Below, piece by piece: positions 5,427 to 59,653 of a stretch of 64,000 nucleotides of DNA (within the stretch, counting starts at the first letter, position 1; each line of letters begins with the position of its first letter). Below the pieces are notes generated by a model, which was not told where the DNA came from, ran no database searches, and worked only from the letters and a program-made list of their open reading frames with translations. Made by a program: the position numbers and the translations under genes. The stretch lies in contig JANBVK010000001.1 in assembly GCA_024239035.1 (NCBI GenBank), positions 42,262 through 106,261 on the forward strand, written 5' to 3'. The stretch is from Patescibacteria group bacterium. GTDB taxonomy: Bacteria > Patescibacteriota > Minisyncoccia > UBA6257 > GWB1-50-10.

Positions 5427-6410
5427 ATGAACCAAGAATATAAAAAACTTAGAGTTGCGGTCTTAATGGGCGGGCCTTCAGAAGAGCACGAAGTGTCTTT
5501 GAAGAGCGGGGAGATGGTAGCAAATGTTCTGGATTCGGGTAAATACGAAATTAGAAAAGTTCTAATAAGCAAAGAGGGGGAGTGGGAAATTCTTCCTCAT
5601 CATTTGAAATCTTACGCCGACGTCGCTTTTATTGCTCTCCACGGGCCGTATGGCGAGGACGGTACCGTTCAGGACATGCTCGGCCAGGCGAACATTCCTT
5701 ACCACGGAACAGGTCCGCTTGAGAGCGCCTTAGCCATGAATAAATTTTTGTCTCTCCAACTTTTTCGGGACGCGGGGTTCGCCGTACCGCTTTCTTTCTT
5801 AATTACGGAGAAAGATTGGCAAAACGGACCTTCGGGCGTTTTGCGCCAGATTCAACACTATCTTGAGTTTCCATTCGTTGTTAAGCCGAATAATAACGGC
5901 TCAAGTTATGGGATAACCATCGTAAAGAATAAGAGCGATATCTCTCCGGCTTTTAATGAAGCGTTTAACGTTTCACAAGAGGTATTGATTCAAGAATACG
6001 TTGAAGGGAAAGAAGTTACCTGCGGCGTTTTGGACCATGGTTGGGCCGGCAGTGAGGTTGCTCTTCTCCCAACAGAAATCATTCCCAAGGTAAGCCACTT
6101 CTTTGACTACAAAGCTAAATATGACAAGGGTGGTTCAGATGAGGTTACTCCGCCCGAAGGAATGCCGGAACACACAATTCGTACCATTCAAAAAACCGCG
6201 CGGGAGATTCACAGGCTTGCGGGTTGTAAGGGAGTTTCTCGTGTTGATATGATTTTAAATAATCGCGGCCAACTTTTTATATTAGAAGTAAACACTCTCC
6301 CCGGACTTACGTCTGAAAGCTTACTGCCTAAAGCAGCTGAGGCAAGCGGGATTCCATTTACCACATTGCTTGACAGGTTAATTCATTCCGCGTTTCTTAA
6401 TTACTTCTAA
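5427..6410 (+). CDS. ddl: D-alanine--D-alanine ligase
   Basis: LRVAVLMGGPSEEHEVSLKSG ... ALHGPYGEDGTVQDMLGQANIPYHG; typical Ddl length and motifs. Confidence 0.9.
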   Translation: MNQEYKKLRVAVLMGGPSEEHEVSLKSGEMVANVLDSGKYEIRKVLISKEGEWEILPHHLKSYADVAFIALHGPYGEDGTVQDMLGQANIPYHGTGPLESALAMNKFLSLQLFRDAGFAVPLSFLITEKDWQNGPSGVLRQIQHYLEFPFVVKPNNNGSSYGITIVKNKSDISPAFNEAFNVSQEVLIQEYVEGKEVTCGVLDHGWAGSEVALLPTEIIPKVSHFFDYKAKYDKGGSDEVTPPEGMPEHTIRTIQKTAREIHRLAGCKGVSRVDMILNNRGQLFILEVNTLPGLTSESLLPKAAEASGIPFTTLLDRLIHSAFLNYF

Positions 6411-7535: not shown

Positions 7536-7573
7536 GTCAATCCCCCACATAAGTACTTATGTGGGGGATTGAC
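7536..7573. promoter_or_regulatory. 38-bp perfect palindrome (gtcaatcccccacataagt|acttatgtgggggattgac) overlapping a TTGACA -35-like hexamer
   Basis: Read directly; same CCACATA..TATGTGG core as three other palindromes in this window. Confidence 0.5.
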
Positions 7574-7867: not shown

Positions 7868-10845
<2,978 letters not shown>

Positions 10846-15525: not shown

Positions 15526-15603
15526 TAACTAATTCAAAAACAAGACCCGAGGTCAATGATCTCGGGTCTCTTGTTATTATGTAATCTTGATTTTAATCAA
15601 GTT

Positions 15604-15618
15604 TTATGCTAGTATAAT
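15604..15618 (+). promoter_or_regulatory. promoter of rnpB (ttttatgctagTATAAT)
   Basis: TATAAT at 15613-15618, 4 nt before the P1 helix start; same ttttatgctagt motif precedes the lipoprotein gene at about 18428. Confidence 0.5.
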
Positions 15619-15621
15619 TTT

Positions 15622-15960
15622 GGTAAGTCAAGCGATAGCGCTTCGCGCAAGCGGAGTGAGGAAAGTCCGGACACTCCTGTCTGCCGAAAGGTAGGTAGTA
15701 ACAAGGTAGCGGCTAACAGCCGTCGTTCGTAAGAATAGAGGTGCGAGCAGTGACGTCCTAAGGTGAAAGCTAAAGGAAGACCCAATCCCAAGCTTGCTGG
15801 TCTAACTCCGTGATAGGGATAACAAAGCGGAGATGAAACGGCTAAATCCTTACTGAGTGCAAGGTCGTACTGTCAGTTTGACAGAGTGCCGCATTGAGCC
15901 TGAGGGTAACCGATGGCCCAGACGAATTATCGCATAAACAGAATCCGGCTTATGACTTGC
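15622..15960 (+). ncRNA. rnpB: RNase P RNA (bacterial type, reduced, about 339 nt)
   Basis: GAGGAAAGTCCGGAC (P4 5' strand), AAGGTGAAAG, ACAGAATCCGGCTTA (P4 3' strand); P1 ggtaagtca/tgacttgcc. Confidence 0.8.
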
Positions 15961-15996
15961 CCCGAGCACTTAAATCTTAGGTGCTCGGTTTTTTTA
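15961..15996 (+). terminator. rho-independent terminator after rnpB
   Basis: ccgagcac-loop-gtgctcgg followed by TTTTTTT. Confidence 0.6.
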
Positions 15997-16509: not shown

Positions 16510-16563
16510 TGAGCCGCTTTTTTTTGATCCTTGAGAGGCGTTTCTCTTTTTAAAAGTGATACT

Positions 16564-16600
16564 TGACGAATAGCATATTATATGCTATTATCTGCTCAGA
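16564..16600 (+). promoter_or_regulatory. promoter TTGACG-17-TATTAT with overlapping 21-bp palindrome aatagcatat-t-atatgctatt (candidate operator)
   Basis: Read directly, upstream of the 16635 ORF. Confidence 0.5.
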
Positions 16601-16634
16601 TCTTCTATTTAGACTATACACAGAAAGGACAACG

Positions 16635-17186
16635 ATGTATAAGCGATTGGTGGTTGCAATTGTGGTGGCTATCGGGATACTCCCGACAACCACCTTCGCC
16701 CAGTCAGGGAATGTTCGGATATTGCTCCACGGAACGAAGACGATCACTGAGAATGGCTTCTTCGGTTGGAGTGGGTGGGTTGTAGCACCGAATGTCGCGA
16801 ACGTCCCAAGTAAGTGGCTTGTCGTGACCGGTCCGCGGCTTCAGACCGATAAGTGGTGGAGCGAGTTCAATTTCGGCGCTTTCGTCCACGATGGCGAGAC
16901 GACACCCACAATCGACATCCGCACCGACTGGCCGTTTCCTGCGCCCTTCTCGTTCTGGACCAACTTTCAATTGACCGATTTTTCTTCGTTCTACGCCTAC
17001 GGCGAGGTGAACTACACTCTTCCGGGCGGTTTCATCATCGGTATTGAGAGCGAGAACGCTCTACCAGACAAGTCGGTCGGTCCTCATCTGTTGATCCCAT
17101 TCGGCGAAGCAGTGATCCAATTAATTTACCAGTTTCACGAGGGAGAGGATCAGTTGTGGTTCCGATTGACGGTCAACTTCCGTTAA
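16635..17186 (+). CDS. secreted Trp-rich hypothetical protein
   Basis: RBS AAAGGA; signal peptide MYKRLVVAIVVAIGILPTTTFAQS; GC-rich; hairpin terminator at about 17200-17240. Confidence 0.5.
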   Translation: MYKRLVVAIVVAIGILPTTTFAQSGNVRILLHGTKTITENGFFGWSGWVVAPNVANVPSKWLVVTGPRLQTDKWWSEFNFGAFVHDGETTPTIDIRTDWPFPAPFSFWTNFQLTDFSSFYAYGEVNYTLPGGFIIGIESENALPDKSVGPHLLIPFGEAVIQLIYQFHEGEDQLWFRLTVNFR

Positions 17187-17484: not shown

Positions 17485-18246
17485 CTAGAGATACCCAGCC
17501 TTCTTTAACCAATCCACATTCTCCCACTCCCACAACTTCTTCGCTCCCAAAAACGCTTCAAAATCTTCCTGCCAATAAGGGAATTCTCTAAGCTCAACAT
17601 GCCCCTCAATTTCACCCCACTCATGATTACACTTTCTCATAAAAGAGTTCCCCCAATCAACTTTTATCTTATCCCTGCCGCCTTTACTCCGGAGGACAGC
17701 GCCGCAGTTTAAGCAAGGTCGGCTCTGGTCAATACGCAGAATCCAACGAGTCTCTAATTTCTTAACTTGGTTTTTCATCGCTGCAATATAAGCAGAAGTT
17801 TGAAGATTATAGTCCCTGTAAATTTCTTGAGATGTCTTAATGTCCATAATACCCATTTTCCCGTCAATTAAAGCAACGGCATCAAGCGTCCCGGCATATC
17901 TATGCTCATAATTCACCAATCGCTTCTCAATATAATCATGGTCAACTTGAATGTTTCTCTTGGTCATAAATCTCAAAAAAGCTTTGATAGAGGGCTCAAT
18001 AGAGGAGGGGACTTCCGGTTTCTTTCCGGTCAAAATCTTCTCAATTACCTCATGAACCAAGGTTCCTTCCTTAGCTGAATTATTTTTAACCCTCTCGGCG
18101 GCCGCAAAATTACTCATCCCCGCATAAAAATAATAGAGAGCCGGTTTTGACTTAATATTCACTATCTTCGTCACCCGCGGATACCAAAATCCCTCAATCT
18201 CATATCCGCAAAGCTCTTTAAACTTTTCAACATCTCGGTAATACAT
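17485..18246 (-). CDS. PD-(D/E)xK nuclease superfamily protein (Cas4/RecB-like fold) with C-terminal Cys cluster
   Basis: GTLDAVALIDGKMGIMDIKTS (D..D-x-K); CLNCG...CNHEWG cysteines. Confidence 0.5.
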   Translation of the reverse strand: MYYRDVEKFKELCGYEIEGFWYPRVTKIVNIKSKPALYYFYAGMSNFAAAERVKNNSAKEGTLVHEVIEKILTGKKPEVPSSIEPSIKAFLRFMTKRNIQVDHDYIEKRLVNYEHRYAGTLDAVALIDGKMGIMDIKTSQEIYRDYNLQTSAYIAAMKNQVKKLETRWILRIDQSRPCLNCGAVLRSKGGRDKIKVDWGNSFMRKCNHEWGEIEGHVELREFPYWQEDFEAFLGAKKLWEWENVDWLKKAGYL

Positions 18247-18325
18247 ACAACCTCCATCTTAACAAGCGTTTAACTTTCTAACAAGATTTTTGAAACTTGC
18301 TACTAAAAAATAATACATTGACCGG

Positions 18326-18394
18326 CGGGGCTTTTTTTTCAAATTTAGAGCGTCTTCACTAGTACCACATATATATGTGGATAAAGTGAAGATC
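18326..18394. repeat. about 65-bp repeat unit (cggggcttttttttcaaatttagagcgtcttcact + imperfect palindrome ..ccacatatatatgtgg..), copy A
   Basis: Near-identical to 19087-19148; palindrome core shared with 7536-7573 and 57860-57893. Confidence 0.7.
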
Positions 18395-18488
18395 AACATA
18401 ACCATTGACAAAAAGTAGATTTTATGCTAGTGTCTTTAGTAGCACATCGCAGAATTCACTCTTGATGCCTAATAGGCGGAGGATACAA

Positions 18489-19022
18489 ATGAGTAGCAAG
18501 ATTACAGTTTGGTCTCTGGCTTGGGTGCTGGTTGCACTCAGCGCCTGCTCGTCGAGCAGTGAGATGGATTCGTTACCACTTCAAGAACAGACGGATTCTC
18601 AGGCCCTGCAATTGCAATGTCCCGAAGGAGTTGCCGCCTGCGAGTTCCCGGTAGTTGTGTCGGACGATTTCTTTTACTCGACTCGCTGGCTCATATTGCC
18701 CGGCGAGGTCGAGGAGGTTGGTCGTCGGCTTGGGTCTTCGCTCGAGTCCATCACCTCGTCGGAAACGGGATGGGTAAAAGAGATCACGTGCCCGCTCATG
18801 TTAACTAGCGAGGGGGCAACAACTCGGTGTTGGGATACTCTGTGTCGCTACGCCATGGGTGACGACACATGTGATGTCGCATCAGTGGCACAGCATCTAG
18901 TGAATGTGGTTGGTGGCTCGAAGCCCGATGAGTTAAGGCTTTTAGGCCTGACGAACCCAATAGAGGGTGGGTACTGGGGCTACGAGCGGGCACTGCTCGT
19001 AGCCTTCTATTACCGCCGCTAA
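18489..19022 (+). CDS. lipoprotein (lipobox LSAC), GC-rich, hypothetical
   Basis: RBS GGAGGA before ATG at 18489; MSSKITVWSLAWVLVALSAC lipobox; far higher GC than surroundings. Confidence 0.6.
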   Translation: MSSKITVWSLAWVLVALSACSSSSEMDSLPLQEQTDSQALQLQCPEGVAACEFPVVVSDDFFYSTRWLILPGEVEEVGRRLGSSLESITSSETGWVKEITCPLMLTSEGATTRCWDTLCRYAMGDDTCDVASVAQHLVNVVGGSKPDELRLLGLTNPIEGGYWGYERALLVAFYYRR

Positions 19023-19064
19023 CACTCCGCTGGTTTCAATTTATAGTTCGCGAGAACGACAAAG

Positions 19065-19097
19065 CCCCGCGGTCATCATCGACCAGCGGGGTTTTTT
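19065..19097 (+). terminator. rho-independent terminator (ccccgcggtc/gaccagcgggg plus T-run)
   Basis: Hairpin plus TTTTTT after the lipoprotein gene. Confidence 0.6.
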
Positions 19098-19148
19098 CAA
19101 ATTTAGAGCGTCTTCACTTCATCCACATATGTGGATGAAGTGAAGATA
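19087..19148. repeat. copy B of the about 65-bp repeat, with perfect 34-bp palindrome cttcacttcatccacat|atgtggatgaagtgaag
   Basis: Read directly. Confidence 0.7.
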
Positions 19149-20534
19149 TTATTTTTTAACTAATAAATCAGTATATTCCACAATATCCCCGGCGCCCATC
19201 ATTACAATTACCGAATTTCTGATTTCGAATTTAGGATTTAGGATTTCCGCCCGCAGGCGGGTGGGGGAGGGGAGATAAGAAACATCAAGCTTTCTTTTTT
19301 TAATTTTTTCCGCAAGATCTTTGGAGGTATACCCTTTATGCACTTTGTCGCGGCCGGCGACCTGGTAAATTGGTAATAAAATGAGGTAATCAACTTCTTG
19401 AAAAGCGGTTGTAAATTCCTTAAACAAGTTTTTTAAACGGTGAGCCTGATGTGGTTGAAACACGCAAATAATTTTCTTTTTAGGAAATTTTTCACGGAAA
19501 CCTTGAAGAGAGGCTTTTATCTCGGTCGGGTGATGAGCGTAATCGTCGTAAACAGGAATTTGCGATTTGCGATTTGCTATTTGCAGTTTGCCGCGAAGTT
19601 CCATTCTTCGCCATGCACCGCGATACCCGCCAAGCGCCTGCAAAATTACCCGCTCGCTGATTCCGAGCACCCTTGCTAGAGTATAGGCCGCGAGGGCATT
19701 TGATACGTTGTGCGTACCCGGCACCTTAAGCACTTTCTTAATTTTCTTGGATACATTGGGAGTCAAATAATACCAAACAACCCGAACTTTATGTCTTTTA
19801 CAAATAATCTGAACCCTGCTTTTCAAACTATAAAGATTCTTATTATCTTTGTTTAAAACTAAAACACCACCGGGCCGAATATTTCTGATAAATCTTAGAA
19901 ACGCCTTTTTAACGTTAGAGAAATTTTTATAGTAATCTAAATGTTCGCGGTCAACATTAGTAATAATTGCAAAAGCGGGGGAGTAGTTTAAAAATGATGC
20001 TTTCCACTCATCAGCCTCAATTACCAGATACTCGCTCCGGCCAAACCGAAAGTTTTTTCCGCCCGCCGGCGGACTGAACTGCCGAAGTTTCGTCCCGACA
20101 ATAACTGTTGGATCAAAACCCGCCTTAACTAAAATTAAAGAAAGTAGGGAAGTGGTGGTGCTCTTGCCGTGAGTGCCGGCAACGGCAATGGTTTTATATT
20201 CCTGACTTACGTCGCTCAACGCCTGCGGGTAGGATAAAGTTCTGACTCCTCTCCTCTTAGCTTCCTTAAATTCCGGATTTATTGGGAGAACAGCTTGACT
20301 GTATATAACCAGCGTGGTTTCAGGACTATGCCTGTCCACCACAGGCAGGTTGGCTTTTTTATGGCCTATTTTGACCTTTACACCTTCTTTTTTGAGGTCT
20401 TGAGTGATTACACTCGAACAGAGATCAGACCCCGAAACAGCCCAATTTTGAGCCAAAAACCACCTCGCAAGGGCACTCATCCCTATTCCTCCTATACCTA
20501 TAAAATGAACTTTATTTTGCCGTTTTTTCATCAT
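19149..20534 (-). CDS. murC: UDP-N-acetylmuramate--L-alanine ligase
   Basis: VHFIGIGGIGMSALARW signature; GTHGKSTTTSL ATP-binding; start set at MMKKRQ. Confidence 0.9.
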   Translation of the reverse strand: MMKKRQNKVHFIGIGGIGMSALARWFLAQNWAVSGSDLCSSVITQDLKKEGVKVKIGHKKANLPVVDRHSPETTLVIYSQAVLPINPEFKEAKRRGVRTLSYPQALSDVSQEYKTIAVAGTHGKSTTTSLLSLILVKAGFDPTVIVGTKLRQFSPPAGGKNFRFGRSEYLVIEADEWKASFLNYSPAFAIITNVDREHLDYYKNFSNVKKAFLRFIRNIRPGGVLVLNKDNKNLYSLKSRVQIICKRHKVRVVWYYLTPNVSKKIKKVLKVPGTHNVSNALAAYTLARVLGISERVILQALGGYRGAWRRMELRGKLQIANRKSQIPVYDDYAHHPTEIKASLQGFREKFPKKKIICVFQPHQAHRLKNLFKEFTTAFQEVDYLILLPIYQVAGRDKVHKGYTSKDLAEKIKKRKLDVSYLPSPTRLRAEILNPKFEIRNSVIVMMGAGDIVEYTDLLVKK

Positions 20535-20766
20535 TTTAGACACGGGTCTTTTACCCCTAAAAATCACGAGGGGAGTAGTATGATTTAAAAATCCTATCTG
20601 TCGCACAATATACCTTTTGTAACAGATGGGTATCTATTACAAAAGATTGCGGCCATTTTACAACAGTTGATTTAAGAAACTATCGTAAAATGGCCTTTCT
20701 TTATATTATGTCCTATTTATCTTACATAACAAGCATAGAAAAACCCGCCTAAGCTTCTAAGCGGGT

Positions 20767-41845: not shown

Positions 41846-42325
41846 CTACCTAGTCACTGCTATACTCTCACTCAACTCTGCCGACGTCGCTCTCACCGTA
41901 ATTCTCCCCGTCGTTGCATCCCTAATGACTTCGTAGCCAGTGTCGTAGTCGGTATTACTTGTGTAATGCGCTGCTGTATCACTCGGGTCAAACGGCATGG
42001 TTGAAATGTAGGTCGGAACTACACACGGAGCAATATCATAACCACCACTTGAAGCCATCGTTGTTGATGCAGTTGGAATCACCCCGGCAGCACAACCCGT
42101 CTCAAATAGACCTTGGTTATCCGCCATCCTCTGACCAATGGAATTTAAAATAGTGTTCACATTACTCCAACGCTGGGTGTTCCGGGCCTGGGCAAACTGA
42201 CGAGCGGGGTTAAGAGCGACGATAACCACTCCGGCTAAAATGGCAATGATGCCAATCACTACCAAAAGCTCAATTAGGGTAAATCCGCCATCACCGCCTC
42301 TAATTTGCAGTTTTTTCTTGGTCAT
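41846..42325 (-). CDS. type IV pilin (prepilin with class III signal)
   Basis: GFTLIELLVVIGIIAILAGVV prepilin N-terminus. Confidence 0.7.
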   Translation of the reverse strand: MTKKKLQIRGGDGGFTLIELLVVIGIIAILAGVVIVALNPARQFAQARNTQRWSNVNTILNSIGQRMADNQGLFETGCAAGVIPTASTTMASSGGYDIAPCVVPTYISTMPFDPSDTAAHYTSNTDYDTGYEVIRDATTGRITVRATSAELSESIAVTR

Positions 42326-42481
42326 TCTGTTTATTTTCTAATTTAAAAATTCGACCTTGTTTTAATAATGCTAACACATCTCTACTTTTTGGGTTATCCA
42401 CATGCCGATTTTCCCCAAGAACGAAGTGATTGGCTGAAAAATCGAGCATCCCGAGAAGCAAAGCGACGAGGGACAGCAAAA

Positions 42482-42892
42482 CTAAAACGCAACCACCTCC
42501 TCCAACAACACCGTCTCCAGTGTGTAATCATCAATTGTTAGCCGCAAATTCGTCGTCCGGTTACTAACTGAGGCGGTGGACTTAATAATAATCTGATTAC
42601 TTATGGTCTCAATCGGCAGCACACGACAAGAATAACTTCCAACACTTACCGTTTCATCACCGTTGTAGGGCCCGGTCGCAATCTGCAATCTGGCATACTC
42701 CAGACATCCCTCCCCTACTTTCCTTGAAATATCCTTCATCTCCAATGCCTGGCTGTCAAAACGCCCCAAAAAATTACTATTGCTAAAAATAATAGCAATA
42801 ATCATAACGATGGCTGTAATAATAATAGCCGAAACTACGGCAACGTAGCCGCCTTCTGAATTTTTTGCTTTGTCTTGTGTTGGTATTCGCAT
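42482..42892 (-). CDS. minor pilin-like membrane protein, hypothetical
   Basis: N-terminal hydrophobic helix; lies inside the pilus gene cluster. Confidence 0.4.
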   Translation of the reverse strand: MRIPTQDKAKNSEGGYVAVVSAIIITAIVMIIAIIFSNSNFLGRFDSQALEMKDISRKVGEGCLEYARLQIATGPYNGDETVSVGSYSCRVLPIETISNQIIIKSTASVSNRTTNLRLTIDDYTLETVLLEEVVAF

Positions 42893-42904
42893 TTTCTAGG
42901 GATC

Positions 42905-43426
42905 CTATCTCAGAACGTAAAAAAGTGTCTCAACAGAAACAAGATAAGGGAAAATCTCACTCTGGAGACTTAAAGAAATTTTCAACGTTGACGTTGCCTC
43001 ACTGCTGGAGAAATGTTCAACCTCAAACTTGGTTACTTTAATTCTGTTATTTGTAATAGGTGCCGCCGGTTCACCGCCCAGTGAAAGCAGGAGTTCACCG
43101 GTAGAGAGAGAAAGAACTGCTGGATCAATGTTTCCCTGTCTTTCTTTTAATTCCAACTGGGTTGAAGAACTACCTGCTGGCGGAGCCGTAACGCTCGCCG
43201 CCTGACTAACAAGCCACTCCAGCTTACCGTCAATAAATTCCCTGTTTACAACCACCTCCCCCCGCTCAACAAGCGTATCAGTTGTGCTAAAAATACTGCT
43301 AATAAAGGAAAATGCCGCTCCTAAAAACATGGCGAGGATAAGGGAATAAATTAAAACCTCAATAAGCGTAAAACCGCCTTCGGTTTTTAGTTCGTTGTTT
43401 TTAGTTTGTTGTTTCTTTAATTTCAT
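42905..43426 (-). CDS. pseudopilin/minor pilin
   Basis: GGFTLIEVLIYSLILAMF prepilin N-terminus. Confidence 0.6.
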   Translation of the reverse strand: MKLKKQQTKNNELKTEGGFTLIEVLIYSLILAMFLGAAFSFISSIFSTTDTLVERGEVVVNREFIDGKLEWLVSQAASVTAPPAGSSSTQLELKERQGNIDPAVLSLSTGELLLSLGGEPAAPITNNRIKVTKFEVEHFSSSEATSTLKISLSLQSEIFPYLVSVETLFYVLR

Positions 43427-43454
43427 CTAAAACCTAAAAGCTAACACCTATCAC

Positions 43455-44909
43455 CTACGGTGAAGACGTAATAATTCTCAAAGCATCATTACTCCTGACT
43501 GAGATGTAAACCAGGTTACTTTCATAATCAATGCCGGTTGCGACCTGCGGAAAATTAAGATGAGAATGAAGTGTTGGATTTGTCGGGTCGGAAACATTAA
43601 TTACTTGAAACTCACGATTACCGTTTGAAGTGGCAAGAAATGCAAGATGATTACGGGTTGTCATATCATTTATAACATTGCCAACGTTAATAAATCCTAG
43701 ATTTGTCATGTTTGCCGGGTCAGTTGTATTAACGGTATAAAAATCCTGGCCGGGAGCTATAAGCGTAAGCGAAGAACGGATGTTAAAAACACTCGCTACG
43801 TCTCCGGAAAACGTCTGTCCCAAAAAAGTAATTGCCGCAGGGTTGGAAACATCTAAAACCATAAGGCCTGCTCCGCCCTTATCAGTTGCAAGATAAGCTC
43901 TTCCGTCACGCACATGAATGTCATTCACATTATCGTTTATCTCATACGAACCCAACGTGGAAGGGGTTGAGGGTTGGGAGACGTCAACTATGAAAAACTC
44001 CGAACCGTCTGAATCTTCTTGAGTTCCGACGTAGACTTTGGAGTCCAGGTAAAATACTGTATTCCCCACAGTATCATCCTCCGTAGTTCCCGGGAGTCGG
44101 TATGAAACAATTAGCGCTGGATTATTGATATCACGCACATCAATAATTTGGAGCTGAGCCGTTCCTTCATTATTGGCAACATAAGCATAGTCTCCCGACA
44201 CATCTATCGCATTTAGGGTCGGACTGGTATTTAAACTTGACGCAATAAAAGGATTTTCTCCGTCAGTTGCATCAACTATCCAAAAATCCGGTTTCGCTGC
44301 CGCAGAAGCAGCGGCAGATATGTAGACAATTTTATTCAAAACATCAAGGTCTGTCGCCTCATTACCTGGACCAAGATCAACCGAACCAAGCGTCTGAGGA
44401 TTCTGCCAATTCCCGGATACACCCCCTCCCCCGGTGTCTCCTGGATCCCCTCCTCCCGGCGGAGCGTTCTGCCAGTCAGTCAAAAGCGTGACCAGTTCAA
44501 CTTTCTGTTCTCTTTGGGGGTCAGTCTGCCAGGTAACCCTGCTCTCTATTCTCTTTGTATCACTACTCTCACTCACAACAATAACCTTTCGGGTTAACAC
44601 TCCGATTACGTCGGACGTGCCGCTAAACTGCCATTTACCTCCCGAAAAAGTTAAGCCGTGTTCTCCATCAGTAAGCCCGTCCCAGTCAAGATCACGAATA
44701 GTCCGAGCGGCTTCAAACCCTTCTTTAGCTAACACTCTCGCTTGAACAGCATTATCCCGGTCAATGAGAATTTTCTGGCCGCCAAAAACTAAAATCACGG
44801 CAAAACTCACGCTAAGCGCAATCAAAGCCAAACCAATCAAAATATCAACCAATGTTTGGCCTGCCTCACCTCGCTTATCACCAGGAAATTGTCCCATGTT
44901 CATTAACAT
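43455..44909 (-). CDS. large pilin-like protein with C-terminal beta-propeller/LVIVD-like repeats (pilus tip adhesin candidate)
   Basis: GQTLVDILIGLALIALSVSF prepilin-like N-terminus; Gly-rich linker; repeated ...YVANNEG..L.IIDV.. blades. Confidence 0.55.
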   Translation of the reverse strand: MLMNMGQFPGDKRGEAGQTLVDILIGLALIALSVSFAVILVFGGQKILIDRDNAVQARVLAKEGFEAARTIRDLDWDGLTDGEHGLTFSGGKWQFSGTSDVIGVLTRKVIVVSESSDTKRIESRVTWQTDPQREQKVELVTLLTDWQNAPPGGGDPGDTGGGGVSGNWQNPQTLGSVDLGPGNEATDLDVLNKIVYISAAASAAAKPDFWIVDATDGENPFIASSLNTSPTLNAIDVSGDYAYVANNEGTAQLQIIDVRDINNPALIVSYRLPGTTEDDTVGNTVFYLDSKVYVGTQEDSDGSEFFIVDVSQPSTPSTLGSYEINDNVNDIHVRDGRAYLATDKGGAGLMVLDVSNPAAITFLGQTFSGDVASVFNIRSSLTLIAPGQDFYTVNTTDPANMTNLGFINVGNVINDMTTRNHLAFLATSNGNREFQVINVSDPTNPTLHSHLNFPQVATGIDYESNLVYISVRSNDALRIITSSP

Positions 44910-45408
44910 TCATTGTTTGAGCATTAACGTTATTGGTTAAAACAATTGTCGTCGTCACGTTAGGCAGCCCCGAAATCTGCGAAAAAACAATCTCATCAAG
45001 CCCGGAAACCCCAATCAAAGGAGCTCTGAAATAATCTTCGTCAAAAGCGGGGTCCCGACCGGCGAAAGACAACCCTTGGAAAAGAACGAAACGGTCACTC
45101 TCCAGCGAAACGCCGCGGCTAATCTCGCGATCGTTGGCGGCGGCTAAACTCCGGGCTCTGCGCAGAATGCTCAAAAGATTTTTCGTCTCAGAAGTTAAAA
45201 CGTAGCTCCGGTAACCGTCCATGCTAATGGGTAAACCAATACTAAACAAAAGTCCCAACAACCCTAAAACGATTAGAACCTCAATGAGAGTGAATCCTGC
45301 CCTCATACTAAAATCTAAGTCCCTGTGTAACTTTATAAATGGGGGTGATGATCGAAATTGCCACAAACCCCACCAAGAGTCCCATAAATAGTAAAAGTAA
45401 GGGTTCAA
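44878..45408 (-). CDS. pseudopilin (GspH/FimT-like)
   Basis: GFTLIEVLIVLGLLGLLFSIG prepilin N-terminus. Confidence 0.6.
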   Translation of the reverse strand: MNPYFYYLWDSWWGLWQFRSSPPFIKLHRDLDFSMRAGFTLIEVLIVLGLLGLLFSIGLPISMDGYRSYVLTSETKNLLSILRRARSLAAANDREISRGVSLESDRFVLFQGLSFAGRDPAFDEDYFRAPLIGVSGLDEIVFSQISGLPNVTTTIVLTNNVNAQTMNVNEHGTISW

Positions 45409-46387
45409 GAATGGTGGTAAAATTCTTCACAATTTCCTCAATCTCACTTTCATAGTATTCGGAAAGATAAAGCAGGTTCTGTTCCAGGTTACCGGTACTT
45501 TCCCCGACCTCAATCATCCCCACTAGCATCGGTGGAAAGAACTTCGGTTTTTGAGCCAAATATCGAGCTATCTCTTCTCCTTTTTTCACCCGTTCAATCA
45601 TCTGATCAATTAGATAACGGTAGTAAAGATTATGAACGGTTCCCCGAGTAGCTGTGAGAGCATCAATAATGGTCATACCGCTTTTTAAGAGAATGCCCAA
45701 AGATCGGCTGAAATTAACCATCGTAACGTCAATAATAATTCCTGAAATAAAGGGGAAAGAAAGCAAAGCTCTGTCAAATACAAAATGTATTTTTTTAACG
45801 GTCAGCAAAACCTGAATTAAAATAACAAAAGCGATGACACCGCCGAGAATTACAAAACCGTAACTGCTCAAAAGCGTCAGAACTTTAATGAGAAGTTGGG
45901 TAGTAAAAGGGAGCTCAACGTTCAAACTGACGAATATCGGCAAAATCTTGGGAAAAATAAAAAGCGTTAGAAAAAGAGTAACACCTAAAGTGGCAAAGAG
46001 AATGACCGCCGGATAAATAAGCGCCGACCGAATTTGATGATTGATTTCTTTTTGTTTCTTTAATTCCTGGGAAAGATGAAGAAGCGTAGAGGAAAGAGTG
46101 CCGCTCTTCTCTCCCACCCGCACCATATTGACAAAAAAACCACTGAAGAGATAACTAAAATTCTCCAAGCTTTGAGCTAAGGACTGGCCGCTGTTTACAT
46201 TATCCGTAATGGTATCAATAACTTTCGCAAACCGTTTAGCCCGCGTCTGACGACGAATAAGGCGCAGCGCCTCAATAATAGGCAAACCGCTTTTTATGGT
46301 TACCGACAAGTGGCGGGCGAAATTTATTCTTTCCTGGAGAGAAGCTGGTTTAAAAATCTTAAGAAAAAAATTCCGCAATTTATTCAT
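45308..46387 (-). CDS. pilC: type IV pilus assembly platform protein PilC (GspF family)
   Basis: Two GspF-like repeats; 3 TM; typical length. Confidence 0.85.
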   Translation of the reverse strand: MNKLRNFFLKIFKPASLQERINFARHLSVTIKSGLPIIEALRLIRRQTRAKRFAKVIDTITDNVNSGQSLAQSLENFSYLFSGFFVNMVRVGEKSGTLSSTLLHLSQELKKQKEINHQIRSALIYPAVILFATLGVTLFLTLFIFPKILPIFVSLNVELPFTTQLLIKVLTLLSSYGFVILGGVIAFVILIQVLLTVKKIHFVFDRALLSFPFISGIIIDVTMVNFSRSLGILLKSGMTIIDALTATRGTVHNLYYRYLIDQMIERVKKGEEIARYLAQKPKFFPPMLVGMIEVGESTGNLEQNLLYLSEYYESEIEEIVKNFTTILEPLLLLFMGLLVGFVAISIITPIYKVTQGLRF

Positions 46388-47606
46388 AGATTATCCGCAC
46401 CACCTCCTCAATGGTAGTAATCCCTTTCTGCGCTTTATCAAAACCGTCCTCAACCATAGTTTTCATACCATTTCTAACTGCCGCCTCCTTGATGTGTGAC
46501 GCATCGGCGCGGCTTACGATAAGATTGCGGATATCCTCATTCACTTCCAAAACTTCGTGAACGCCAATTCTGCTTTTGTAACCGCTTCCGTCACATTCCT
46601 TACAACCAGGACCAATTGTATACACCTTCTTGGTTTGAGAACTGTCTGCTGCAAAACCCAAACTCTTAATCTCGGGAATACTTAAAGAACGTTCCTTTCG
46701 ACAAGCCGTACACGCCATCCTCACAAGGCGTTGAGCTATAACGACGTTCAAGGTTGAGGCAGCTAAAAATGGCGGCACTCCCATGTCGGTCAAACGCGGA
46801 AAGGTGGTGGCGGCATCGTTAGTGTGAAGGGTTGAGAGCATAATATGGCCTGTAAGCGCCGCATTTACCGCAATGTTCGCGGTCTCGGAATCCCTGATCT
46901 CTCCTACCATAATAATATTTGGGTCCTGGCGGAGAATTGACCGGAGTCCATTTGCGAAAGTGAGCCCGGCTGAGACGTTAACTGGTATCTGGGTAATTCC
47001 TTCAATTGAATATTCAATCGGGTCCTCGATGGTTATAATGGAAACCTTACGGTCATTTAACTTCTTGATAACTGTATACAGAGTAGTTGTTTTCCCGGAA
47101 CCGGTCGGTCCATTAGCTAAGATCATTCCGTAGGGCTTATAAATTGCTTTGGTTAAAGACTTCATTTGCTCCTTGGTAAACCCTAAATCTTCCAGCGTGA
47201 ACTTCTGGGAAGTTTCGGCTAGAATCCTCATAACCGTGTTCTCCCCGTAAAAAGTGGGGGCAATGGAAACCCTGATATCAACCTCTCCCGACTTCTCTAT
47301 TTTCGCCTTAAACCTGCCGTCCTGAGGAAGGTGATGAATGTCGGTTTTCAAACCTGAGAGAACCTTCACCCGACTTACTATTTCCGATTGGAGCTCTTTA
47401 GAAAAGGAAAAAGCGTCTTTAAGAATTCCGTCAACCCGAAACCGAATAACTACCTTTTCCTCGGCCGGTTCAATGTGAATGTCGGAGGCTCGGGAGCTGT
47501 AAGCGTACTCAACAAAGAGGTCAACAATATCAATAATAGAGACCTCCCCCGCTGAAGCGGTAAGCTGCTTCTCAATTAACGGTTTTAAGGATTTAATATC
47601 ACGCAT
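46380..47606 (-). CDS. pilB: type IV pilus ATPase (GspE/PilB family) with tetracysteine motif
   Basis: GPTGSGKTTTLY Walker A; IMVGEIRD; LSTLHTND; CTAC...CKEC zinc motif. Confidence 0.8.
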   Translation of the reverse strand: MRDIKSLKPLIEKQLTASAGEVSIIDIVDLFVEYAYSSRASDIHIEPAEEKVVIRFRVDGILKDAFSFSKELQSEIVSRVKVLSGLKTDIHHLPQDGRFKAKIEKSGEVDIRVSIAPTFYGENTVMRILAETSQKFTLEDLGFTKEQMKSLTKAIYKPYGMILANGPTGSGKTTTLYTVIKKLNDRKVSIITIEDPIEYSIEGITQIPVNVSAGLTFANGLRSILRQDPNIIMVGEIRDSETANIAVNAALTGHIMLSTLHTNDAATTFPRLTDMGVPPFLAASTLNVVIAQRLVRMACTACRKERSLSIPEIKSLGFAADSSQTKKVYTIGPGCKECDGSGYKSRIGVHEVLEVNEDIRNLIVSRADASHIKEAAVRNGMKTMVEDGFDKAQKGITTIEEVVRIIYE

Positions 47607-55615: not shown

Positions 55616-55654
55616 GAAATACGTATTTTAATACGTATTTAAATACGTACTTTT
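55616..55654. promoter_or_regulatory. three tandem AATACGTATT palindromes (12-13 bp period)
   Basis: aaatacgtatttt aatacgtattta aatacgtactttt, read directly, upstream of the STAND gene. Confidence 0.5.
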
Positions 55655-55689: not shown

Positions 55690-55800
55690 TGATATGACGC
55701 GTCATATCACCTCTTCCACCACTCTCCAGAAACAGTATGACATGTCATACTGTTCATCTTCACAACAAATAGGGGTGTGATGACATGTCATCACACCCCT
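55690..55800. promoter_or_regulatory. three perfect palindromes (20, 24, 30 bp) sharing core ATGAC-NN-GTCAT with centres 43 bp apart
   Basis: tgatatgacgcgtcatatca (55690-55709); aacagtatgacatgtcatactgtt (55731-55754); aggggtgtgatgacatgtcatcacacccct (55771-55800). Confidence 0.6.
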
Positions 55801-56062
55801 TTAAACCAACCATTCGCTAACCCACTACAAGAGCGGGTTATTTTTATTAATACTGGGCAGGGAAATCGAACAAAATAATTTGACTAGCAAATTATTTTTT
55901 TAAAACCCTCGGTTTTAAATCCGTTGCACTCATTCCTACACAGGGGAACCTCGAACTTTCCCCCGACCCCCTGCCTACCGGCAGGCAGGCCTTTCGTGTT
56001 CGAATCATTGCTGCCGGGTACTTCAACTCACTGCGCTCGCTCAGCACGGGCAGGGATTCTCA

Positions 56063-57859: not shown

Positions 57860-57893
57860 CCTCACTTCATCCACATACGTGGGACTAGTGAGG
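57860..57893. repeat. copy C of the CCACATA..GTGG palindrome family (cctcacttcatccacatacgtgggactagtgagg)
   Basis: Shares cttcacttcatccacata arm with 19112-19145. Confidence 0.55.
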
Positions 57894-59530: not shown

Positions 59531-59653
59531 ATGCAATAAAAACCTAACGGCTCAACGAGGATTATCGTTGAGCCGTTCAGATTACCATCCCCCACATCTT
59601 CGCTTTGAAACTATAAATTTCAGACCGACCCACAAAAGCTTTATACTGTTAAG

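Follow-up and report, generated by a model that had tools for sequence, protein, structure and literature searches.

A lipoprotein gene between two palindrome-bearing repeats in a variable slot beside murC of a Patescibacterium

The lipoprotein gene and its neighbors

The DNA analysed here, referred to as the window, is a stretch of 64,000 nucleotides from a Jorgensenbacteria-like Patescibacterium (CPR). An orphan lipoprotein gene lies on its forward strand between two conserved genes, a PD-(D/E)XK exonuclease-like gene at 17485-18246 and murC, both of which are encoded on the reverse strand, and it is convergent with murC. The window also contains the type IV pilus genes of the host at 41846-47606. 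The features of the locus are as follows.

15602-15967, plus strand: promoter motif of rnpB (15602-15613) and RNase P RNA (15620-15967), listed as context for the common promoter motif
17485-18246, minus strand: PD-(D/E)XK exonuclease-like gene, 253 aa, first conserved flank (Pfam, PHROG, homologs)
18316-18394, plus strand: repeat copy A, whole (local alignment to copy B)
18320-18339, plus strand: terminator tail of copy A, 3' arm GACCGGCGGGGC and T8 with no 5' arm (read from the sequence)
18340-18352, plus strand: spacer of copy A, CAAATTTAGAGCG, inside the 27-nt exact core
18353-18392, no strand: palindrome A, imperfect, 40 nt long, forming a hairpin interrupted by a 4x4 internal loop (fold, alignment)
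18405-18433, plus strand: putative promoter of the lipoprotein gene, with -35 TTGACA (18405-18410), a 17-nt spacer and extended -10 TGcTAGTGT (18425-18433) (read from the sequence)
18453-18488, plus strand: 5' UTR kept in L003, including the Shine-Dalgarno sequence GGAGG (18478-18482) (blastn homology to L003 from 18453)
18489-19022, plus strand: orphan lipoprotein gene, 534 bp, 177 aa, lipobox LSAC at residues 17-20 (ORF, signal peptide, homology)
19064-19097, plus strand: intrinsic terminator behind the lipoprotein gene, folding into a bulged stem of 10-11 bp with a 6-nt loop, then T6 (RNA fold)
19077-19148, plus strand: repeat copy B, whole, comprising terminator loop and 3' arm, T6, spacer and palindrome (alignment to copy A)
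19111-19146, no strand: palindrome B, 36 bp, perfect, 2 nt from the murC stop codon (sequence, fold)
19149-20606, minus strand: murC, longest ORF 485 aa, second conserved flank (three Mur ligase Pfam domains)
57860-57893, no strand: palindrome C, the third member of the subfamily in the window, imperfect and in the opposite orientation to A and B, just past a terminator between convergent genes

The PD-(D/E)XK protein has a weak match to Pfam PDDEXK_1 and matches the PHROG exonuclease family phrog_298 with E = 7.6e-24. More than 2000 homologs of it were found in Jorgensen-, Wolfe- and Brennerbacteria at 60-77% identity, and the nearest relative by this protein is 77% identical at best. In the ENA gene call, murC encodes 443 aa and starts near 20480.

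The lipoprotein begins with MSSKITVWSLAWVLVALSAC, a signal peptide that ends in the lipobox L-S-A-C; bacterial lipoproteins are recognized by an N-terminal signal peptide ending in [LVI][ASTVI][GAS]C. The 534-bp lipoprotein gene with lipobox LSAC described in the initial annotation was thus recovered. P0002, its sole close homolog (73% identity) among 5.8 billion proteins, has LGAC at the equivalent position. An exhaustive HMMER search found one real remote homolog, the membrane-anchored protein P0123, and a second match to a 3442-aa leucine-rich-repeat protein is probably spurious. Pfam, PHROGs and NCBIfam gave no family match, and an AlphaFold2 model based on a two-sequence alignment reached a pLDDT of only 33. 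As initially claimed, the GC content of the gene is far above that of its surroundings (0.552 vs 0.34-0.43 in the flanking DNA). It is the highest among the 56 window genes (z = 2.7), and the GC3 of 0.61 is the second highest. The gene of the close homolog is likewise richer in GC than its own flanks (0.53 vs 0.385). Comparison with the lipoprotein gene of L003, one of the loci used for comparison, gave a dN/dS of 0.36 and a dS of 0.44; the L003 organism is known from a single 1,023-bp contig. The GC content, the dN/dS ratio and the one close and one remote homolog suggest that the ORF is probably a real gene of foreign-like character. The gene is absent from all 80 GTDB relatives, so it is not conserved at this position, and its distribution marks it as lineage-specific accessory cargo.

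The gene appears to have its own promoter, as previously proposed. The motif TTTTATGCTAGT at 18420 recurs at 15602, directly 5' of the RNase P RNA. That RNA has a score of 83 bits (E = 7.6e-25), which is under the Rfam gathering score, and it was missed by the default Rfam scan for this reason. The sequence TTGACAAAAAGT is common to the lipoprotein promoter and the slot promoter of L094. An Rfam scan of the repeats and the leader gave nothing past chance microRNA-like matches. An intrinsic terminator, defined as a GC-rich stem-loop followed by a U-tract, was found at 19064-19097; palindrome B agrees with this definition on the plus strand only, and palindrome A does not.

Paired repeats and a family of long hairpins

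Copies A and B are direct repeats that bracket the lipoprotein gene, as first described, although both are slightly longer than was thought. In a gapped alignment (A 18316-18393/4, B 19077-19147/8), 66 of 69 aligned bases are identical, plus indels. The 27-nt exact core TTTTTTCAAATTTAGAGCGTCTTCACT occurs exactly twice, at 18334 and 19092, and none is expected in shuffles. The likeness reaches about 45 nt beyond the palindrome on one side only, where it covers the terminator arm, the T-run and the spacer. The divergence of A from B is about 9%, i.e., they are closer to each other than the lipoprotein genes of the window and L003. Copy B comes after a full terminator hairpin (19064-19097), whereas copy A has only half a terminator. 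The terminator arm and tail of copy A agree at 16/16 bases with their counterparts in the L004 gene-X terminator and are nearly matched in L097 and L094. In contrast, the terminator at copy B groups with the lipoprotein terminator of L003. Relatives of the spacer, ATTTAGAG(C/A)G or AAATTTTAGCGG, occur at the equivalent site in L094, L013 and L003.

No signature of a mobile element was detected at the repeats. No duplicated k-mer is common to the flanks of A, B and C, as a target-site duplication would leave, and no terminal inverted repeats occur at A and B. The attC core sites RYYYAAC/GTTRRRY have no match around A, B and C on either strand, and no recombinase was found among the 56 window ORFs. 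The initial annotation viewed the gene as cargo delimited by repeats, possibly MITE-like. The cargo part stands with the absence from the 80 relatives; the MITE or transposon part is not supported, given direct repeats with no inverted termini, no target-site duplication and no recombinase among the window ORFs, and palindromes of the same family also lie at the empty sites L013, L014 and L089.

Palindrome A has a 4x4 internal mismatch and four extra central bases, and its right arm is identical to the right arm at the equivalent L086 site. Palindrome B is perfect, as originally noted, but its length is 36 bp (19111-19146) and not 34 bp. On the plus strand it is flagged as terminator-like and is followed by ATTATTTTTT, which corresponds to the last KK-stop codons of murC in reverse complement. 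One arm of palindrome C carries the variant CACTAGTNCCAC, which is also present in the left arm of A. Because A and C have this imperfect arm variant in common, the perfect B is the derived form. Perfect palindromes without a spacer and with arms of 12 nt or more number four in the window, while 200 shuffles gave none. Another, partial copy lies about 4.5 kb past the right end of the window. Together with it, the three full copies of the host fall within about 81 kb, whereas about 900 kb of the relatives' loci contain none. The initial annotation had considered a generic REP element as a counter-explanation, and this applies in half: the 27-nt core is private to the locus, whereas the palindrome recurs at 57860 and in part about 4.5 kb outside the window, and related palindromes are present at unrelated loci.

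These palindromes are members of a long-hairpin family that is spread across the clade and has the form CYTCA...CATATG...TGARG; this family is also found at empty sites directly past the murC stop and at unrelated loci. In L013, L014, L089, L086 and the window, a palindrome lies 0-13 nt past the murC stop, and the position of B matches the others. These post-murC palindromes differ in sequence but keep their self-complementarity (e.g., CTTCA/TGAAG vs CCTCA/TGAGG). The interior of B is of the type at L086 site A and not of the relatives' post-murC CCTCAAAAT...GTCCATATGGAC type. Other family palindromes lie after stop codons or terminators. The contexts of 50 long palindromes were 14 convergent, 32 tandem and 4 divergent, a lean to 3' ends that is not significant. 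The arms measure 16-21 nt, the tip and base are conserved, and changes in the arms are compensatory. A U-tract is missing from most family hairpins, and their symmetry nearly always runs through the centre. Between L009 and L089 there is a discrete 43-nt indel, inside which the palindrome lies. Elsewhere, similar palindromes also stand on both sides of a cassette, in no fewer than three cases (L087, L097 and L086, the last of the same family). The pattern was absent from viral contigs. This is a previously undescribed hairpin family at transcription-unit boundaries with conserved tips and bases, compensatory arm changes and presence/absence polymorphism. The hairpins may function as terminators or insulators, recombination sites or operators. 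Between the convergent lipoprotein gene and murC, two strong hairpins fold at -58.5 kcal/mol (z = -8.1), and palindrome B with the adjacent terminator is a plausible two-way stop for both genes.

Gene turnover in the slot and the origin of the repeats

In about 45 of the 80 GTDB-relative loci, the two flanking genes are direct neighbors on the same strand, as a rule with 4-170 bp between them. The slot is filled by unrelated small ORFs in L004, L012, L017, L025, L052, L058, L064, L094 and L097. The occupants include the lipoprotein gene (window, L003), gene X of 162-174 aa (L004, L086, L097, L098), an 85-aa gene (L094), a TrpR-like gene (L097) and genes for a 189-aa membrane protein, a NUDIX protein, a methyltransferase and others. 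L097 has a real two-cassette array of gene X followed by the TrpR-like gene. Empty slots (L013, L014, L089) have one palindrome, while the occupied window and L086, whose left end is assigned to murC on 14 nt, have two; in L004, gene X is present without such palindromes. The murC/PD-(D/E)XK junction is a hot spot, a recurrently variable slot with other small genes or none in relatives, and the lipoprotein gene is an insertion into it.

Regulatory parts are common to cassettes with unrelated ORFs. The terminators of the window (at copy B), L003, L004, L097 and L094 are homologous, and the L003 lipoprotein gene has the promoter and structured leader of gene X in L004, L086 and L097. In L003, the homology to the gene-X leader stops at 312 and that to the 5' UTR of the window lipoprotein gene starts at 314, a junction that would fit a different deletion of the same kind of array. 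Since promoter, leader and terminator are common to cassettes with unrelated ORFs, at least some breakpoints lie inside the regulatory parts and not at the palindromes.

The explanation favored here, to which we give an even chance of being correct, sees A and B as paralogous modules that mark the 3' boundaries of successive cassettes, which turn over in the slot without an element-encoded enzyme. The lipoprotein cassette would be a self-contained unit of promoter, 5' UTR, ORF and intrinsic terminator, accessory and probably foreign, housed between two conserved, ancestrally adjacent and co-directional genes. Each module would consist of the slot-terminator tail, a 13-nt spacer and the clade-wide hairpin palindrome. 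Copy B would end the lipoprotein cassette and abut the murC stop, forming with the canonical terminator a two-hairpin stop for convergent transcripts. Copy A would most likely be what is left of a gene-X-type cassette that once lay upstream and whose 3' end survived a deletion running from its promoter to its terminator loop. Alternatively, A may have arisen by local duplication or gene conversion between both boundaries. With either origin, the T-run, the spacer and the start of the palindrome would have been homogenised later in the host lineage; this extra step has to be assumed because A and B are closer than the window and L003 lipoprotein genes. The L086-type interior of B and the arm variant common to A and C speak for homogenisation. 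Turnover may proceed via homologous or illegitimate recombination in the conserved flanks, like a "minimal mobile element". We infer that events in the slot took this order and that the hairpin acts as a terminator or insulator. The absence of mobile-element signatures from the window ORFs and the repeats counts for boundary modules, as do the hot spot, the regulatory parts common to its cassettes, the 16/16 match of the half terminator of A to that of gene X in L004, the array in L097 and the palindromes past the murC stop of relatives. Several observations count against them: copy A sits between divergent promoters with nothing there to terminate, most of the hairpins lack a U-tract, symmetry through the hairpin centre is not required by RNA terminators, and the lean of the palindromes to 3' ends is not significant. 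The palindrome pairs in L087, L097 and L086 could instead mean that insertion duplicates the palindrome or that recombination takes place at it. The shortness of the L003 contig and the 14-nt assignment of L086 also count against them.

It is possible, though unlikely, that the modules are recombination sites of an integron-like or Xer-like system, in which a circular cassette joins a resident module, a copy results on each side and arrays accrete. One palindrome at the empty sites and two at the occupied ones, the pairs that bracket genes in L087 and L097, the array in L097 and the palindrome-bearing indel between L009 and L089 would all be explained, as would the same 30-38-nt palindrome at unrelated loci of different genomes. 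A gene for an Xer-like tyrosine recombinase lies about 22 kb from the locus, just beyond the window, but this protein is generic and under every curated cut-off, and no window ORF (0/56) is a recombinase. The missing attC core sites, gene X without palindromes in L004, the breakpoints within cassettes and the one-sided likeness of about 45 nt also disagree with such a system. Furthermore, a crossover between two different palindromes should leave reciprocal hybrid arms, and A and B lack this pattern.

The one-sided 45 nt upstream of the palindrome is left unexplained by a small mobile or amplifying REP-like extragenic element that landed independently at both boundaries and flanked the lipoprotein gene incidentally, a scenario that we consider quite improbable. 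The copy numbers in the host and its relatives are in its favor, and the copies are all extragenic, mostly past ORFs or terminators. A CGTC head precedes and overlaps the stem in all three window copies (GAGCGTC before TTCAC, GGCGTC before CTCAC), with TGTC in L086, L088 and L014; two of the four motif bases are paired, and CGTC/TGTC variation is also known from CGTC-tagged REPs. The stems of 17-21 bp with a 0- or 4-nt spacer, however, do not resemble the 8-9-bp stems and 4-5-nt loops of CGTC REPs. Palindrome positions are kept across species while sequences diverge, which points to vertical descent, and none of the 56 window ORFs is a RAYT or IS200-like gene.

Very unlikely is a role of the palindromes as operators of a dimeric DNA-binding regulator on the lipoprotein and PD-(D/E)XK promoters, with the duplication as a second site. 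Perfect dyad symmetry with no central spacer would suit an operator, and the palindrome ends 2-13 nt 5' of the -35 in the window (A), L086, L003 and rnpB of L004. Bracketed units encode PaaX-like (L087) and TrpR-like (L097) regulators, and the sequence is kept across genomes that differ in GC content. On the other hand, arms of 16-21 nt that are conserved only at tip and base, with compensatory changes, favor a hairpin over a fixed protein footprint, and the neighbors of B and C are convergent genes, without a promoter close by. The window unit and its surroundings encode no regulator, and since the window lacks a homolog of the PaaX-like protein found in L087, that protein was rejected as the palindrome regulator. 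LexA (Cheo-box) and NrdR boxes were dismissed after a comparison by eye, since the family as a whole keeps CATATG but not the central CCACATATGTGG. DNA uptake sequence pairs were dismissed because the half-site is present only within palindromes. TIGR-Tas stem-loop arrays, which have palindromic stems and occur in CPR, were dismissed for lack of an array, box C/D geometry and a Tas protein; the palindromes here are solitary and fully paired, and no Nop-domain match was found in the window.

A broader reading, a long shot at present, is that the CPR clade has a gene-cassette system, integrase-independent or Xer-dependent, in which the terminator-plus-palindrome module doubles as a recombination or insertion site. 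One palindrome would then mark an empty site and two an insert, e.g., via cruciform or hairpin processing. In such a system, orphan genes for surface proteins would accumulate in slots such as murC/PD-(D/E)XK and be lost from them again. The genomes of CPR/Patescibacteria are tiny, and the gain and loss of lineage-specific surface proteins in them are poorly understood. The murC/PD-(D/E)XK locus is a concrete comparable case, with a core-gene slot, a conserved promoter, leader and terminator, and exchanged orphan ORFs. If the hairpins are entry and exit sites of cassettes, they would represent a new route of gene flux in CPR. If they are only terminators, they would still sharpen terminator and promoter models for CPR annotation.

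Comparison with known systems

MITEs and other IS-derived elements differ from the present repeats, as A and B are direct and have no terminal inverted repeats or target-site duplication. Xer/dif-type sites (IMEX, pdif) are 28-30 bp long, with arms of about 11 bp and a 6-8-bp centre, and normally occur once per chromosome, whereas the window palindromes have 17-20-nt arms, a 0-4-nt centre and at least three copies in 64 kb.

The locus resembles integron attC arrays (e.g., Vibrio VCRs) in its small units of one gene with a palindromic repeat, imperfect or perfect, behind each, in the existence of arrays (L097) and in unit content that differs between genomes. In contrast to integrons, there is no IntI, attI or Pc nearby, the nearest tyrosine recombinase being the distant Xer-like protein, and there are no R'/R'' core sites around A, B and C. 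Integron cassettes are promoterless, while the host cassette has its own putative promoter (18405-18433) and terminator, and family palindromes are also found at ordinary gene boundaries.

Bidirectional intrinsic terminators are similar in that the hairpin at 19064-19091 with T6 is canonical and two hairpins part convergent genes. They differ in that the murC-sense strand has no proper U-tract past either hairpin and copy A has no gene to end.

REPs carry a terminal GTAG or CGTC (or TGTC/CCTC) motif, typically exceed 100 copies per genome and are associated with a RAYT (Y1 transposase). CGTC REPs have 8-9-bp stems, 4-5-nt loops and a short tail (PMC3733652). Like the CGTC-tagged superfamily (PMC3733652), the hairpins studied here are short extragenic repeats, mostly 3' of ORFs in convergent or tandem contexts, with CGTC/TGTC at one end, lineage-specific amplification and a proposed role in RNA-hairpin termination or mRNA stabilisation. 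They depart from it in stems of 16-21 bp, often perfect through the centre, in a low copy number (about one copy every 20-30 kb over the 81 kb covered), in the pairing of part of the CGTC motif and in the absence of head-to-head dimers among the host copies and of a RAYT among the window ORFs.

The minimal mobile elements (MMEs) of Neisseria, described in 2007, also lie between two conserved genes, here murC and the PD-(D/E)XK gene. In both cases, alternative unrelated whole-gene cassettes or none occupy one site in different genomes, no mobility gene is encoded by the element, small extragenic repeats lie in the intergenic DNA, and the host has type IV pilus genes, as in competent bacteria. 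The present comparison differs in that it concerns species and genera of uncultivated CPR bacteria and not strains, and several slot cassettes have a common promoter, leader and terminator, which is outside the MME definition. These common regulatory parts suggest that ORFs may be replaced, or arrays formed, within one expression slot. The mosaic homology and the absence of mobility genes among the window ORFs are indirect hints that cassettes may be incorporated by flank-mediated homologous recombination after DNA uptake, as in MMEs.

The murC and PD-(D/E)XK slot and its lipoprotein gene

The lipoprotein gene and its repeats lie between two minus-strand genes and are arranged as follows.

17485-18246, minus strand: PD-(D/E)XK exonuclease-like gene, 253 aa
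18316-18393/4: repeat copy A
18353-18392: palindrome A, imperfect, with four extra central bases and a 4x4 internal mismatch
18489-19022, plus strand: lipoprotein ORF, 534 bp, between the copies
19077-19147/8: repeat copy B
19111-19146: palindrome B, perfect, 36 bp
19149-20606, minus strand: murC

The lipoprotein ORF is preceded by a GGAGG Shine-Dalgarno sequence, and its product has a signal peptide and, as in the initial annotation, an LSAC lipobox. The unusually high GC content reported there was also confirmed: GC is 0.552, the highest of the 56 window genes (z = 2.7), and GC3 is 0.61, the second highest. The lipoprotein is nearly an orphan. Besides the lipoprotein itself, a search of 5.8 billion proteins returned a single match, P0002 (73% identical), encoded on the 1,023-bp contig L003, where the gene is likewise GC-rich (0.53 against 0.385 in the flanks). 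Profile searching, run exhaustively over 1.84 billion representatives, contributed one more relative, remote and membrane-anchored (P0123); one further match was probably spurious. Pfam, PHROGs, and NCBIfam searches gave no match, and the AlphaFold2 model has a pLDDT of 33. The window and L003 genes show a dN/dS of 0.36 at dS = 0.44, and the ORF is a real gene.

Eighty loci from GTDB species representatives were retrieved with the 253-aa neighbour as query; its homologs carry the names Jorgensen-, Brenner-, Wolfebacteria or Paceibacterota, which places the host among the CPR/Patescibacteria. The window itself belongs to a 729-kb scaffold of an ENA metagenome assembly. murC lies immediately upstream of the PD-(D/E)XK gene on the same strand in about 45 of the 80, usually across a gap of 4-170 bp, and the commonest gene order is M23 peptidase, small gene, murC, PD-(D/E)XK gene. 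In the window, the lipoprotein gene separates the two on the opposite strand, and none of the 80 loci encodes a homolog, which supports its earlier description as cargo. Other genes occupy the same slot in relatives.

Slot occupants in relatives
Gene X, 162-174 aa, unrelated to the lipoprotein: L004, L086, L097, L098
85-aa gene: L094
TrpR-like gene: L097
189-aa membrane protein, NUDIX protein, methyltransferase, and further ORFs without family match: other genomes

The L097 slot contains two tandem cassettes, gene X with the slot terminator and then the TrpR-like gene, followed by murC. Judged by gene order, the lipoprotein gene has been inserted between core genes at a hot spot. It is an orphan accessory gene of an ordinary kind.

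Several other features were observed in these regions. The ORF at 16563-17186 (plus strand), which the PD-(D/E)XK gene separates from the lipoprotein locus, is a second GC-rich ORF with the window's maximum GC3 (0.63); it encodes a signal peptide, has no family match, and is missing in all 80 relatives. Four NUDIX hydrolase genes occur in the window, at 1424, 5011, 32348, and 49195, and the L058 slot occupant is also a NUDIX gene. In L008, L023, L036, L041, L059, and L070, the short gap between murC and the PD-(D/E)XK gene is filled with tandemly repeated AT-rich heptamers (TTAGAAA or AAACCTT type). L012 has, at 9090-9244 beside a 23S rRNA fragment, a group I intron-like match (RF00028) whose 43.8 bits fall short of the gathering score.

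Repeat copies, shared regulatory parts and the origin of copy A

The 64-kb window contains the 27-nt string TTTTTTCAAATTTAGAGCGTCTTCACT in exactly two places, 18334 and 19092, where shuffles predict none. The two copies reported around the lipoprotein gene are thus real, and gapped local alignment lengthens them, with 66 of 69 aligned bases identical and three indels. The long palindrome forms the end part of both. Palindrome B is perfect, as first described, and measures 36 bp rather than 34 bp. Perfect palindromes that have no spacer and arms of 12 nt or more number 4 in the window and 0 in 200 shuffles. Copy B is preceded by a complete intrinsic terminator (stem 19064-19091, then T6). The terminator of copy A has no 5' arm and comprises just the 3' arm, GACCGGCGGGGC, with T8.

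The lipoprotein promoter motif TTTTATGCTAGT has a second occurrence at 15602, directly upstream of the RNase P RNA.

15620-15967, plus strand: RNase P RNA (bacterial type A), 83 bits

The initial remark that this motif is shared with rnpB is therefore correct. The default Rfam scan missed this RNA because its score is under the gathering score of 100; homologs in L004 and L012 reach 97 and 103 bits, respectively. The window's lipoprotein promoter and the L094 85-aa cassette have an identical -35 region, TTGACAAAAAGT. Homology between the window and L003 spans only 18453-19027, starting 36 nt before the ATG and ending shortly after the stop. Upstream of this point, L003 carries a promoter and a structured leader of about 75 nt, and this leader also stands ahead of gene X, an unrelated gene, in L004, L086, and L097.

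Conserved 5' leader (AAGCTTAAGCTGGGGTCRGAYGACCTTTAACAGCTTGA..GGYAGYACCTTTCCATA)
L003: 250-312
L004: ~5845-5905, reverse
L086: ~700-770, reverse
L097: ~30-95

Both leader helices show compensatory changes. The outer helix is AAGCUG/CAGCUU in L004 and L086 and AUGUUG/CAGCAU in L003 and L097, while the inner hairpin is GGUC/GACC in L003, L004, and L086 and GGCC/GGCU in L097. The leader had no Rfam match and may be an undescribed cis-regulatory RNA. The window's cassette is without its 5' part. The terminators of the window (copy B), L003, L004, L097, and L094 are homologous.

The half terminator of copy A, GACCGGCGGGGCTTTT, shares a 16-nt identity with the 3' arm and tail of the L004 gene-X terminator, whereas the copy B terminator, GACCAGCGGGG-TTTT, groups with the L003 lipoprotein terminator. 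In L003, homology to the gene-X leader stops at 312 and homology to the window lipoprotein 5' UTR starts at 314. Both observations would be accounted for together by an ancestral two-cassette array, gene X and then the lipoprotein gene. In the window lineage, a deletion of the first cassette would have run from the gene-X promoter up to the terminator loop, and the L003 lineage would have undergone a separate deletion from inside the leader to the lipoprotein 5' UTR. This history is plausible, at somewhat under even chances. Alternatively, a duplication within the locus, or gene conversion acting between the slot's two boundaries, would have given rise to copy A. Under both histories A and B must have been homogenised: their T-run, spacer, and palindrome start are 100% identical, yet the sequence after the T-run differs in L003, L004, and L097. 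The interior of palindrome B (CACTTCATCCACAT) is of the type present at site A in L086, while the type following the murC stop in relatives is CCTCAAAAT...GTCCATATGGAC. Palindromes A and C (57860-57893) have the imperfect arm variant CACTAGTNCCAC in common; therefore, the imperfect form is ancestral and the perfect palindrome B derived.

The palindrome family and its possible roles

Palindrome C belongs to the same subfamily as A and B, and other members of the wider family were found in relatives.

57860-57893: palindrome C (TCACT-N4-CCACRT...AYGTGG-N4-AGTGA), after a terminator, between convergent genes
L013, L014, L089-L091: CYTCA...CATATG...TGARG palindromes, 0-13 nt after the murC stop, in empty sites
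L086: palindromes of the CYTCA type flanking gene X on both sides
L004: one of the CYTCA type between a terminator and the rnpB promoter
L013, L032, L049: palindromes of the CYTCA type after other genes

A fourth, partial copy of the TCACT...AGTGA subfamily lies about 4.5 kb past the window's right end. About 900 kb of relatives' loci contain no member of the subfamily, which does occur at unrelated loci in five JGI contigs. Palindrome arms vary among genomes yet stay complementary (CTTCA/TGAAG vs CCTCA/TGAGG; CTTTAT/ATAAAG vs CTGTAT/ATACAG), which indicates selection for self-pairing or a mechanism maintaining it. The near-identical genomes L009 (~5943) and L089 (2901-2945) show one mismatch in about 200 nt of flanks and differ by a clean indel, a 43-nt palindrome unit directly after the murC stop in L089 only; the palindrome being ancestral at this site, the indel is most simply a deletion. 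In these loci, long palindromes (stem of 14 bp or more; central spacer absent from nearly all) have a density of about one per 12-14 kb. Among the 50 that could be placed between two called genes, 14 were convergent, 32 tandem, and 4 divergent, against length-proportional expectations of 11.4, 30.8, and 7.8; the lean toward 3' ends is not significant.

Other palindromes were recorded in the window. A 38-bp perfect palindrome (GTCAATCCCCCACATAAGTACTTATGTGGGGGATTGAC) lies at 7536-7573, about 300 nt upstream of the 23S rRNA; its family (CAATCCCCCACATAAATTTATGTGGGGGAT) is found at the rnpB 3' end in L012 and also in L013. Three long palindromes (55617-55652, 55728-55757, and 55769-55802) cluster upstream of a 1451-aa AAA/STAND-like gene (51149-55504, minus strand); two of them have the centre ATGACATGTCAT, seen also near the L004 murC stop. 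A further hairpin family, CCTAACGGCTCAACGA...TCGTTGAGCCGTT, is present at 59543-59580 and about 4.4 kb past the right end (L099 ~5525-5562), roughly 9 kb apart, and the second copy adjoins a degenerate half-copy of the CGTCCTCACTTCATC palindrome arm.

Between the lipoprotein gene and murC, which converge, lie two strong adjacent hairpins (-58.5 kcal/mol, z = -8.1), the first of which is a canonical terminator for the lipoprotein gene. On the plus strand, palindrome B is followed by ATTATTTTTT, the reverse complement of murC's last codons; on the murC strand, it starts 2 nt past the stop codon. The inferred role of the palindromes is that of hairpins at transcription-unit boundaries, in termination, 3'-end protection or insulation. 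Against a pure terminator role, palindrome A has divergent promoters on either side, a U-tract is missing from most family members, and a palindrome ends 2-13 nt from a -35 hexamer in four cases. Symmetry through the centre, moreover, is not required of RNA hairpins.

Recombination or insertion sites are an unlikely explanation of the palindromes. In this subclade, empty sites have one palindrome and occupied sites two, and paired like palindromes bracket genes in L087 and L097. In L087, two direct copies of CCTCACTGTATCC[A/G]CATATGTGGATACAGTGAGG (1147-1176 and 2815-2844, 1.67 kb apart) enclose a lamin-tail-domain (LTD) secreted protein gene and a PaaX-like regulator gene. In L097, GGTCTAA-N4-TTAGACC hairpins at 751-768 and 1230-1247 flank the TrpR-like gene, the second slot cassette; their loops are mutually reverse complementary, and the upstream copy overlaps this gene's promoter. 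However, none of the 56 window ORFs encodes a recombinase; the nearest such gene, a generic Xer-like one, is some 22 kb away from the lipoprotein locus.

L100 3205-4296, ~4 kb left of the window start: Xer-like tyrosine recombinase, 363 aa

Its best NCBIfam matches, XerD, XerA, and XerC, are all far under the cut-offs. In addition, no attC cores or target-site duplication were found, L004 has gene X without palindromes, and different ORFs share regulatory parts.

A REP-like amplifying element is less probable still. The CGTC/TGTC head resembles that of CGTC-tagged REPs, and location is extragenic with lineage-specific multiplicity. However, the stems have twice the length of those in such REPs, there are few copies, a RAYT gene was not seen, and this reading does not explain the 45-nt flank that A and B share on one side. 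An operator of a dimeric regulator is quite improbable: perfect dyads adjoin promoters and the L087 and L097 units encode regulators, but arm length varies with compensatory changes, some copies have no nearby promoter, and the window locus has no regulator. The recombination-site, REP-like, and operator readings are mutually compatible. The MITE-like unit proposed initially was not supported: with no recombinase among the 56 ORFs and no target-site duplication, copies A and B are not a transposon.

Relation to known systems

No description of such a CPR slot or of a long boundary-palindrome family was found in the searchable literature. Two aspects are mildly new: a CPR gene slot in which promoter, leader, and terminator are conserved and orphan ORFs are interchangeable, and a family of long boundary palindromes with conserved tips and bases. 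That these form a palindrome-mediated cassette system in CPR is a long shot. With two conserved genes and differing whole-gene cassettes between them, the slot agrees with the published definition of the Neisseria minimal mobile element, the exchange mechanism here being putative.
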